NCBI GenBank assembly: GCA_950072105.1
Contig: CATMOE010000074.1
Location: 1-14,724, forward strand
Length of the DNA stretch: 14,724 nt
Direction of reading: 5' to 3'
Source: an uncultured Dehalococcoidia bacterium
Lineage (GTDB): Bacteria > Chloroflexota > Dehalococcoidia > Lucifugimonadales > UBA3495
The position numbers and the translations under genes are program-made. Positions within the stretch are counted from its first letter, which is position 1. Every line of letters starts with the position of its first letter. This document shows positions 9,501-11,614 of this stretch, piece by piece. The notes under the pieces were generated by a model. It did not search any database, was not told the origin of the DNA, and saw only the letters and a program-made list of their open reading frames with translations.

Positions 9501-9739
9501 GAGTTTTGGTGAATACATCCAATCATATGAAGAAGTCGTAATATCTCATCGGTTTACGGTTGGCTTTCGGGCGGCTGTATGACGATTTATATTTATATTT
9601 GGGGTGCAGTTTAGCCGCGTTTCGTGAGACAAGGGCCGCTTATTGGACTTTCGAATGTATCTTCAGCTTGAAGGGAGCCTTGTCACCGTTCACAGCCTTG
9701 TGATAGTCTGCTAAAAATTCGCTTCGGCAGGCGGACAAC

Positions 9740-10213
9740 ATGAACGCTTCGGTGAGCACTGTCCTCGAGAGGCGGCTGGTTGCCGTGATTCTGTTCCTGT
9801 TCGGGCTTGCCCTCATGGCAGCTTGCGGCGGCTCAGGCGAAAGCCCGGCCCCCACGGCCGCCGGCGAAACATCCCGGGGGCCGTCAGAATCACAGGGCCA
9901 AACTTCCACCGTGGAGGGAGTCAAAGTCATTGACGTGCTGACTGCGTTCGTCGAGCCCAGGTTCACGCCGGATCCGATCGTTTTGAAAGTTGGCGAGCCG
10001 GTGCAGTTCCGGGTTATCAGCGCCGACACAAGACATACCTTCACGGTGGACGAGTTGAACGTCGATCTGCAGATAGCTCAGAAATTATTGGGGGGAACCG
10101 CCATCTCCGAAGTGATCACTCCCCAGACAGCCGGTACTTTCCGGCTTTACTGCCGCATCCATATGAGCGTTTCCTACGGACTCATGAGTGGAGTGATTCA
10201 AGTGGTGGACTAG
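9740..10213 (+). CDS. Cupredoxin-domain lipoprotein (putative type-1 copper site)
   Basis: Signal peptide with lipobox LMAAC. FTPDPIVLKVGEPV, HTFTV and GTFRLYCRIH…LMSGVIQV supply His, Cys, His and Met ligands in cupredoxin order. Confidence 0.85.
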   Translation: MNASVSTVLERRLVAVILFLFGLALMAACGGSGESPAPTAAGETSRGPSESQGQTSTVEGVKVIDVLTAFVEPRFTPDPIVLKVGEPVQFRVISADTRHTFTVDELNVDLQIAQKLLGGTAISEVITPQTAGTFRLYCRIHMSVSYGLMSGVIQVVD

Positions 10214-10304
10214 GCTCCATGAAGGATCTTTACGTCCTTCTTGAATTCCCTGGTTTGGGCAGAGACCACGATTCCTGAACCGCACCGGCCGAAAGGAGGC
10301 ATAC

Positions 10305-10832
10305 ATGACCACAAGTTCATCGCACCCAGAACCCAACTACGACCCGTTCCCGCCCGGTGGAAGTCACCGAAGCATGGTTATCGAGATGGATGTCGAAGAC
10401 ATGGGAAGCATGCTGCGGCGGGGCTTCACCACAAGCCACGGGGACTTCACGATCTATTGTGACGAACCGGCGGCGATCGGCGGCAATGGAACCGCGCCGG
10501 CTCCGTTGCACTACTTCGCGGCCTCCATACTCTTTTGAGAGATGACGCAGATTGAGAGGTACTCTCAACTTATGAAGGTCAACATCGGCAAGGTCAGCGC
10601 CCACATCGCGGTGCATTTCGATCTAACCGGATCTGTGCTTGGGGGAACCATCCAAGCCGGGGCACCCAAGGTGGTCACCAGCTACGTCGTGGAATCCACG
10701 GACGACCGCGCAAAGGTGGCGGCGGTGCTGAAGAACGCCCGGAACGGTTGTTGGGTGAGGGCGGCGGTGGCGAACCCCACGCCCTTCGAAGATACACTTA
10801 CTCTCAACGGAGAGACATTTAATTTCGACTAA
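10305..10832 (+). CDS. OsmC/Ohr-like protein, probable selenoprotein (TGA at 10536-10538 read as Sec, codon 78)
   Basis: ORFs 10305-10538 and 10542-10832 are in the same frame. The joined protein reads DEPAAIGGNGTAPAPLHYFAASILF-U-EMTQ…ARNGCWV, so TGA occupies the first catalytic Cys position of OsmC and the second Cys is retained. A strong RBS (AAGGAGG) precedes only 10305. Confidence 0.85.
10549..10570 (+). promoter_or_regulatory. Candidate bacterial SECIS hairpin
   Basis: TTGAGAG (10552-10558), loop GTA, CTCTCAA (10562-10568), extendable by 2 bp past a bulged A. The G-starting apical loop is about 20 nt 3' of the UGA. Confidence 0.7.
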
Positions 10833-10905
10833 CGTCGACTCAGCGGGCCGCCTTGCGTACCGCCCGGCTGAAAATGCAGCGGCCAGGGAATCAGGCCAGA
10901 TCGAC

Positions 10906-10941
10906 CAGAAGACCGCCGGAACCGGTTCCGGCGGTCTTCTG
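10906..10941. terminator. Perfect 36-bp palindrome between convergent genes (probable bidirectional terminator or stabiliser)
   Basis: CAGAAGACCGCCGGAACC|GGTTCCGGCGGTCTTCTG, between the osmC-like and LUD genes. Confidence 0.65.
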
Positions 10942-10996
10942 ACGTATACATCTCACGGCGCTGAACGGCCCGAAATCTCCCGGGCTCCGATGACGG

Positions 10997-11614
10997 TCAC
11001 CATCCCAGTTCTTCCTGAATCAATATCAGGTTTACGCGTTCCGGCGCCGTTTCGTACTCCATTATCATCAGCTTTCCGATGGGCGACGCCGATACTCCCC
11101 GTTCCTCCAACCATTGGTCATGGCGGTCAACCGTGTACCCCCTGACCCTTTCGATCGCATCCGCCAGATCAGCGCAGATTTTCTGAGTTCCCGCCACTAG
11201 GATAACGTTTTTGGCCCCGAAAGCGTAGGCGCTGATCTGACTGCCTGAGGCACTGGCGATCACGATCTCCCCCGTTTCCGCTATGGCCTGCACGCTGCCG
11301 ATGAAATATTCGGCGATCGACGAATCCCTCCGAATGTTTTGCTGGGCGGCCGGGTCGGATGCTTGTTCCAGCGCGTCGTGCAGGTTGGTGTAGCGAGGGT
11401 TGCCGCGCACATAGTTGGAATAGCCGATGTGGTCCAAGGTTTCCGACGTGCTGTTGAAAATTTGGGACCCCTCGGGAATCATCTCGATAAGCCGATGTTT
11501 GGCGGCTTCTCCGCTCGTGACTACTTCGGCATGGACGTTCCGCCGTGCCAGAGCGGAAATCGTGCGCTGGATGGAGGCACTGTCTGCTAGGTAGGTCGGT
11601 CTCTCGGCGGTCAA
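10997..11614 (-). CDS. LUD-domain protein (lactate utilisation LutC/YkgG-like)
   Basis: Likely start TTG 11614 after GAAGGAG. Motifs IPEGSQIFNSTSETL, GSVQAIAETGEIVIASASGSQ, VILVAGTQKI, and the C-terminal LILIQEELGW. Confidence 0.8.
   Translation of the reverse strand: MTAERPTYLADSASIQRTISALARRNVHAEVVTSGEAAKHRLIEMIPEGSQIFNSTSETLDHIGYSNYVRGNPRYTNLHDALEQASDPAAQQNIRRDSSIAEYFIGSVQAIAETGEIVIASASGSQISAYAFGAKNVILVAGTQKICADLADAIERVRGYTVDRHDQWLEERGVSASPIGKLMIMEYETAPERVNLILIQEELGW

Follow-up and report, generated by a model that had tools for sequence, protein, structure and literature searches.

An OsmC-related selenoprotein gene predicted from an in-frame UGA and a covarying hairpin in an uncultured marine Dehalococcoidia bacterium

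The locus

The window, that is, the whole stretch of 14,724 nucleotides analysed here, carries on its forward strand a frame (10305-10832) of 77 residues, a TGA, 97 residues and a closing TAA, and the TGA at codon 78 is the only internal one. Under ordinary stop rules the frame falls into a same-frame pair of ORFs, 10305-10538 (77 aa) and 10542-10832 (96 aa), with TGA-GAG as the sole spacer. The preliminary description reported this pair together with one ribosome-binding site, and the sequence agrees, the motif AAAGGAGG lying 5 nt before the ATG at 10305. The features of the locus are as follows.

9740..10213, forward strand: upstream cupredoxin-like gene, by profile match; not beside relatives of the selenoprotein gene in other species
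10292..10299, forward strand: Shine-Dalgarno site, read from the sequence, followed 5 nt later by the ATG
10305..10832, forward strand: predicted CDS of a 175-aa OsmC-related selenoprotein (NF041052; Pfam PF02566), TGA read as U, from profile matches and the fold model
10536..10538, forward strand: in-frame TGA at codon 78, where homologue alignments predict Sec in place of the first (peroxidatic) Cys; motif U-E-M-T (UxxT)
10552..10568, forward strand: predicted upper stem-loop of a bacterial SECIS, 7 bp with a GUA loop, start 20 nt past the UGA, from geometry and covariation
10749..10751, forward strand: Cys149, aligned with the resolving Cys of Ohr in homologue and profile alignments
10906..10941, no strand: long perfect inverted repeat between the gene and a convergent LUD-domain gene, a likely terminator judging from the sequence

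U78 and C149 are 71 residues apart. The inverted repeat at 10906-10941 is not listed by the terminator scan, and comparison of the neighbourhoods of the family loci finds no conserved operon. The convergent LUD gene is common to five species, all of the nearest clade, and the cupredoxin gene is found in no other species. Contigs of four RNA libraries, from four studies, span the gene with codon 78 unchanged. Three of them run from 9732-9793 to 10935-10952 and the fourth from 9633 to 11407, a hint of co-transcription with the cupredoxin-like gene from contigs that show neither strand nor level and end at a palindrome able to break assemblies. At the contig ends (293-1837, 12782-14285 and 14591-14665 of the window) there are PTPS/QueD-like, TPR-bearing, HEPN (RiboL-PSP-like, below cut-off) and unannotated genes, with a tRNA-Pro at the far end, and these possibly represent island or defence DNA.

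Residue at position 78 in homologues

The best 150 representatives of the homologues comprise 72 single-domain proteins spanning the site, 37 tandem-domain proteins and 41 that do not span it. Among these 72 single-domain proteins, position 78 is Cys in 66, Ser in 4 and Gly in 2, and position 149 is Cys in 68. The expectation of Cys or TGA at codon 78 is thus borne out, by the 66 Cys and by TGA in all 25 loci of the family described below, and Trp, which had been named with other non-Cys residues as telling against selenocysteine, occurs in 0 of the 72. Many of the 41 non-spanning representatives stop at residue 77 or begin at 80-89. U78 and C149 align with both Cys of the structure 3CJE.

In the 37 tandem-domain representatives of the best 150, the C-terminal domain has Cys at the site and the N-terminal domain mostly Ser. 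In these tandem OsmC-like proteins, of 320-424 aa (P0025, P0066, P0077-P0079 and others), both Cys positions of the first domain are mostly Ser, and the proteins are likely equivalent to a dimer fused into a single chain, one site being live. Telling against the selenocysteine reading, a polymorphic cluster of closely related marine proteins (P0002, P0004, P0020, P0244-P0254) has Gly at the Sec site, the count being 12 of 14 members, with P0004 and P0020 in addition. Several of its members alter conserved residues, and since 5 of the 12 Gly members end right after the second Cys, the cluster is probably a decaying copy, as judged from protein sequences. It is absent from the three genomes of the genus that were searched.

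Recurrence of the in-frame TGA

The family sample of 60 genomes contains a protein match in 23, with 25 genes in total, every one of which has the TGA at column 78. One of these loci (L048, on G012:C2) keeps the TGA and has in addition a frameshift just past the hairpin, being either a pseudogene or an assembly error. In the phylum sample of 301 genomes, 15 exceed the NF041052 cut-off and give 17 matches, of which 16 have one TGA and the remaining one, in genome G101, has TGC. In all, the TGA stands at the site in 40 phylum-wide loci with both halves conserved. In a public Dehalococcoidia bacterium record the gene differs at 2 of its 528 bases and keeps the TGA, and a word-indexed search for the locus returns two loci only. 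Of the contigs in public assemblies, 245 carry the 77-aa half and 277 a C-terminal piece of 86 aa. Public records list the halves as separate proteins, as anticipated in the preliminary description, and fragments of 77 aa and of 86-104 aa stand there for the gene and its relatives. Sequencing error at codon 78, with TGC or TGT expected in the reads, is excluded, as the TGA recurs in public assemblies and in the four RNA-library contigs.

That the TGA is a true stop, whether through a nonsense mutation, a sequencing error or two half-proteins with a restart at the ATG at 10542, is very improbable. This reading draws on the separate database proteins of 77 and 86-96 aa and on the ATG two codons past the TGA. 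It is opposed by the identical TGA in the 40 phylum loci with both halves conserved, by the number of contigs with the 77-aa half, and by the unaltered codon in the RNA-library contigs. Met80 is missing in 12 of 38 aligned clade members, so the restart is not conserved. A break would moreover cost the catalytic residue and, because U78 lies in the middle of the helix 67-89, would divide this helix between the halves.

A code in which UGA is read as Trp or Gly, to which Gly at the site in some database relatives might point, has next to no probability and is effectively refuted by the presence of RF2 in the genome and by TGA closing 404 of the 1,466 open frames of at least 350 codons, which make UGA an ordinary stop elsewhere in the genome; tRNA-Sec is also the sole TCA-anticodon tRNA in the ARAGORN list, and the homologues have Cys, in no case of the 72 Trp, at the site.

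The hairpin downstream of the UGA

A perfect 7-bp stem pairs 10552-10558 with 10562-10568 and closes a GTA loop starting 20 nt past the UGA, which agrees with the preliminary description of a 7-bp stem with a G-starting loop at about that distance. The bSECIS consensus in the consulted part of PMC13188914 (Fig. 2) has a loop of 3-9 nt, a stem of 4-16 bp, a G in the first two loop positions, a distance of 16-37 nt from the UGA and an energy of at most -7.5 kcal/mol. The hairpin of the window has this geometry (loop of 3 nt, GUA; stem of 7 bp; spacing of 20 nt), and its energy is borderline, -6.2 to -7.5 kcal/mol depending on the bounds and -8.7 in a longer window. Its stability against shuffled sequences is not significant in four folds (z of 0.43, -0.44, -0.24 and -0.90) and is therefore left out of the evidence. 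Across the genome, 797 of 113,224 TGA triplets (0.7%) have a perfect stem of at least 7 bp with a G-loop 16-37 nt downstream, and 108 (0.1%) have one under a stricter hairpin rule.

The comparative evidence is strong. In the 23 distinct family rows, 96.9% of the stem cells are paired and two pairs are changed on both sides, and a synonymous Arg codon switch (AGG/CGG) in the stem tracks a Ser/Ala change three codons on. The hairpin is thus a clean example of synonymous codons that follow an amino-acid change and preserve the structure. Conservation among TGA-bearing homologues, proposed earlier as a check, was followed in 31 rows picked from the 40 TGA loci (16 of the family, 15 wider). Compensatory changes occur at 6 of the 7 stem pairs, in 40 such cells, with a covariation score of 0.564 that 0 of 500 shuffles reach; the counts are inflated by relatedness, and the pair types are diverse (column 20/30: AU 14, CG 7, GC 4, UA 4). 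Controls slid along the same 31 rows have at most 48% of cells paired, against 90% at the hairpin. The loop position is G[G/U] in 40 of 40 TGA loci and in 0 of 14 Cys loci, of which 13 are distant and below the cut-off, so that the G101 gene is the sole close control. The hairpin is therefore best read as a predicted bacterial SECIS, for which the comparative evidence is strong and the single-sequence stability weak. At 10535-10541 of the window, a run of seven bases that takes in the UGA repeats the sequence of the SECIS 5' arm exactly and could likewise pair with the 3' arm.

Selenocysteine machinery

The source genome (G000; 4.08 Mb, 92% complete, 6% contamination) has selA, selB and selD above cut-offs and a tRNA-Sec (selC), so the machinery that the preliminary description asked for is complete. 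Its selD has its own TGA followed by a hairpin. In the family, selA is present in 22 of the 23 genomes with a protein match, the exception being G041 (88% complete), in which neither selA nor selB is detected. Since selA is also present in 56 of all 60 family genomes, and selB in 9 of the 9 genomes whose matches are distant Cys-type OsmC-like genes, co-occurrence with the machinery is necessary and not discriminating. In G101 (92% complete), whose gene has TGC, selB is not found. Thirteen other genomes have a TGA gene above the cut-off, and selB is detected in 12 of them; the exception is G109 (79% complete), which like G041 counts against recoding. Nor is selB found in G275, whose below-cut-off TGA gene looks frameshifted.

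The source genome is rich in selenoprotein candidates. A rough scan gives 27 TGA-plus-hairpin frames in which the TGA aligns to the Cys of a paralogue, several of them spurious; from their motifs, these frames are presumably DsbA-, rhodanese-, AhpD-, thioredoxin- and thiolase-like.

In the terms of established selenocysteine biology, SelB with Sec-tRNA would bind the G-loop hairpin and deliver Sec at the UGA of codon 78. Comparison of sequences makes it nearly certain that 10305-10832 is a single unbroken gene, in which the internal TGA specifies selenocysteine in place of the first active-site Cys.

Family assignment and fold

The read-through protein matches the NCBIfam model NF041052, 'OsmC-related (seleno)protein', with 153.5 bits (cut-off 95), and PF02566 with 43.5 bits; neither the Ohr model TIGR03561 nor the OsmC model TIGR03562 matches it. 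A fold model from a 107-row alignment has a mean pLDDT of 92.7 and the OsmC/Ohr fold. A single-sequence model (pLDDT 31.6) was discarded. The best Foldseek matches of the model are 2OPL, 3CJE, 2ONF, 2PN2 and 1VLA, all ahead of true Ohr structures.

Profile alignment by hhalign with seven Ohr proteins from the phylum (probability 96%) places the peroxidatic Cys at U78, the resolving Cys at C149, the Glu at Leu68 and the Arg at Met36; alignment with 12 OsmC proteins is weak (probability 13%). Ohr (TIGR03561; Arg19, Glu51, Cys61 and Cys125 in Xylella Ohr) and OsmC (TIGR03562) thus share the fold and the two Cys positions with the protein of the window and differ from it at the Arg and Glu positions. 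The catalytic Glu of Ohr (NPE motif, ten residues before the peroxidatic Cys) is absent: all 38 clade rows have Leu or Met at position 68, and none of the 72 single-domain homologues among the best 150 representatives has Glu there. The catalytic Arg, which lies in the beta1-beta2 loop of Ohr and in the beta3-alpha1 loop of OsmC, is absent too, with Met36 at the Ohr position and no Arg in residues 40-84. A Lys or Arg at position 38 is conserved in 35 of 38 clade rows and might substitute for the catalytic Arg. The protein has a conserved set of its own, made of D53-E54, T81-Q82, R85, S110 and a semi-conserved C52.

With catalytic Arg and Glu missing, the protein is Ohr-like and not a true Ohr or OsmC, following the definition in the consulted part of PMC5384416. 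The two conserved Cys positions and the lack of Arg and Glu are shared with the Ohr-like/YhfA types, whose members Jannaschia Jann_2040 (3CJE), Geobacter GSU2788 (2OPL) and Thermoplasma Ta0195 (2ONF) are the best matches in sequence and fold; the same part of PMC5384416 gives this two-Cys hallmark and names Jannaschia among its example genera of Ohr-like proteins. These types have Cys where the protein of the window has Sec, and their identity to it is 16-20% in structural alignments. The earlier proposal of a 175-aa Sec/Cys redox protein is upheld and narrowed, and the predicted product can safely be called a Sec/Cys redox protein of the Ohr-like group.

The class had been said not to be new, which is correct, as it is represented by the OsmC-like family of the Sargasso Sea reported in 2005 and by NF041052. 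The consulted part of Zhang, Fomenko and Gladyshev 2005 (PMC1088965) describes three OsmC-like selenoproteins with UXXT from the Sargasso Sea, placed in COG1765/PF02566. By eye, one of them (AACY01145085) resembles the protein of the window in DEP..GG..P.PL.Y, in a U at the same site followed by xxTQ..RY, in GSV and in GC, and its hairpin closes a GTA loop 20 nt past the TGA, as in the gene of the window. The clade of the window gene has U-E-M-T where the Sargasso type has U-L-L-T, and unlike the OsmC_like_Se proteins of Zhang 2005 and NF041052, the window gene appears without read-through in the public records consulted. The family is also tabulated in the parts consulted of PMC2398784, PMC9312934 and PMC13188914, and those of PMC12013277 and of two bioRxiv preprints have nothing further on it. 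A literature search, thin on subscription papers, found no experimental study of the OsmC-like Sec family, no paper citing NF041052 and nothing relevant on selenoproteins of SAR202.

On a quick midpoint-rooted tree the gene belongs to an all-Sec clade of 26 sequences of the window's own class (SH-aLRT 99). The Sec and non-Sec labels need nine changes on this tree, of which starred branches force four, and it therefore supports no claim about the direction of change. The family having been predicted in 2005 and modelled in NCBIfam, the gene is real and not new as a kind: by sequence comparison it is a genuine intact selenoprotein gene and a further member of the OsmC-like family predicted since then.

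Other OsmC-fold genes of the source genome

Pfam OsmC matches in the source genome number five, four of them above the cut-off, and each has one TGA. Two are of the window type, two (on contigs C3 and C124) have the TGA at the second Cys, and one (on C8) has it at the first. The second gene of the window type (L026, G000:C44:23462-24004, reverse strand) is about 55% identical to the window gene, scores 140.4 bits against NF041052, and has the same TGA and a compensated hairpin; it lies directly downstream of a luciferase-like monooxygenase gene. The genes on C3, C124 and C8 are below the NF041052 cut-off or unmatched by it.

Those on C3 and C124 (L084, G000:C3:29312-29767, forward strand; L086, G000:C124:2575-3069, reverse strand) encode 145-aa OsmC-fold proteins in which Cys occupies the first site and the TGA the second (resolving) one, with a conserved hairpin after it. 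At this second site, 23 phylum loci of the type have TGA in 16 and Cys in 7, two weak matches being dropped. The gene on C8 (L087, G000:C8:7852-8886, forward strand) encodes 333 aa with an OsmC-like N-terminal part; the TGA takes the place of the first Cys, a hairpin is present, and the second Cys lies in a CPV motif. It has no NCBIfam match, TGA-bearing frames like it, of about 340-420 codons, are found in many family genomes, and the type is possibly an uncatalogued selenoprotein subfamily. Elsewhere in the genome, G000:C23:17631-22111 is an array of 29 tRNA genes, all on the same strand and packed into 4.5 kb, which resembles the tRNA arrays of mobile elements.

Predicted function

The chemistry of Ohr and OsmC, in which peroxide reduction involves a resolving Cys and re-reduction by lipoyl- or AhpD-type partners, is given in the parts consulted of PMC8945050 and PMC5962072. 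On this analogy, the 175-residue OsmC/Ohr-fold protein, with its UGA decoded as Sec, would rather more probably than any other way work as a Sec78/Cys149 peroxide reductase. The Sec78 selenolate would attack the hydroperoxide, Cys149 would resolve the intermediate with formation of a selenenylsulfide, and regeneration of the enzyme, a homodimer, would fall to a lipoylated protein or to an AhpD-like reductase. A selenolate is ionised unaided and may therefore offset the missing Arg and Glu of Ohr, which the Cys homologues lack too. Family-model searches find no canonical Ohr or OsmC in the source genome (92% complete), which has four matches to PF00364 (lipoyl/biotinyl domain). An AhpD/CMD-like CxxU selenoprotein gene lies upstream on the opposite strand, divergent from the gene of the paralogous OsmC-Se clade, at seven loci of three related genera only (L035, L036, L039, L040, L043, L045, L046), and its product is a candidate reductant partner. 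The missing Arg and Glu tell against a peroxidase. According to the consulted part of PMC5384416, the Ohr-like TvOsmC, which lacks Arg and Glu, was inactive as a peroxidase in its authors' hands and another group detected activity; that of PMC8945050 calls the function of the YhfA type uninvestigated.

The main rival to a peroxide reductase is a non-peroxide redox role of the same selenoprotein, a weaker candidate that nevertheless deserves weight. Here Sec78 and Cys149 would reduce, or transfer S or Se on, a disulfide, sulfoxide or persulfide, possibly in the service of flavin-monooxygenase catabolism. The absence of the Ohr Arg and Glu and the different conserved set (D53-E54, T81-Q82, R85, S110, C52) suit such a role, as do the aromatic-catabolism-type genes of the window (FAA hydrolase, glyoxalase/extradiol dioxygenase, ABC transporter). 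Of the 25 family loci, 10 have a luciferase-like monooxygenase gene no more than 1.5 kb away, compared with 7% of random gene-sized sites of the source genome. This adjacency is demoted by kinship and by copy number, since the ten loci represent some 4-5 arrangements shared by kin, the monooxygenases are not orthologous (28-38% identity), and the genome has 120 luciferase-like monooxygenase matches, none of them within 1.5 kb of the gene of the window. Flavin monooxygenases leak H2O2, and such leakage would suit a peroxidase equally.

A role of the selenoprotein in the binding or detoxification of a soft metal (Hg, Cd or Cu), using Sec78, Cys149 and Cys52 and with no substrate turnover, is improbable. 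The three chalcogen residues and the cupredoxin-like gene upstream would fit, but that gene is not beside the relatives in other species, metal-resistance families are absent from the 117 neighbour ORFs scanned, and the consulted part of PMC5384416 treats the pair of Cys as the fold's redox hallmark.

Significance

Because public records hold the halves as fragments, the intact redox selenoprotein that a marine Chloroflexota lineage encodes has been overlooked, and reading the gene through corrects a systematic annotation error for it and its relatives. The analysis adds comparative support for the OsmC-like Sec family, which is known from prediction, and touches the question of what Arg/Glu-less Ohr-like proteins do.

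More speculatively, in marine Dehalococcoidia with about 120 flavin monooxygenases, a set of OsmC-fold selenoenzymes may replace canonical Ohr and OsmC. In this tentative picture the Arg/Glu-less Sec-first type, standing beside the Sec-second and the longer Sec-first types and fed by the AhpD-like selenoprotein, would clear peroxides leaked by the monooxygenases. If this is true, one genome would amount to a natural experiment on the question of which cysteine acts as nucleophile in the Ohr-like branch.
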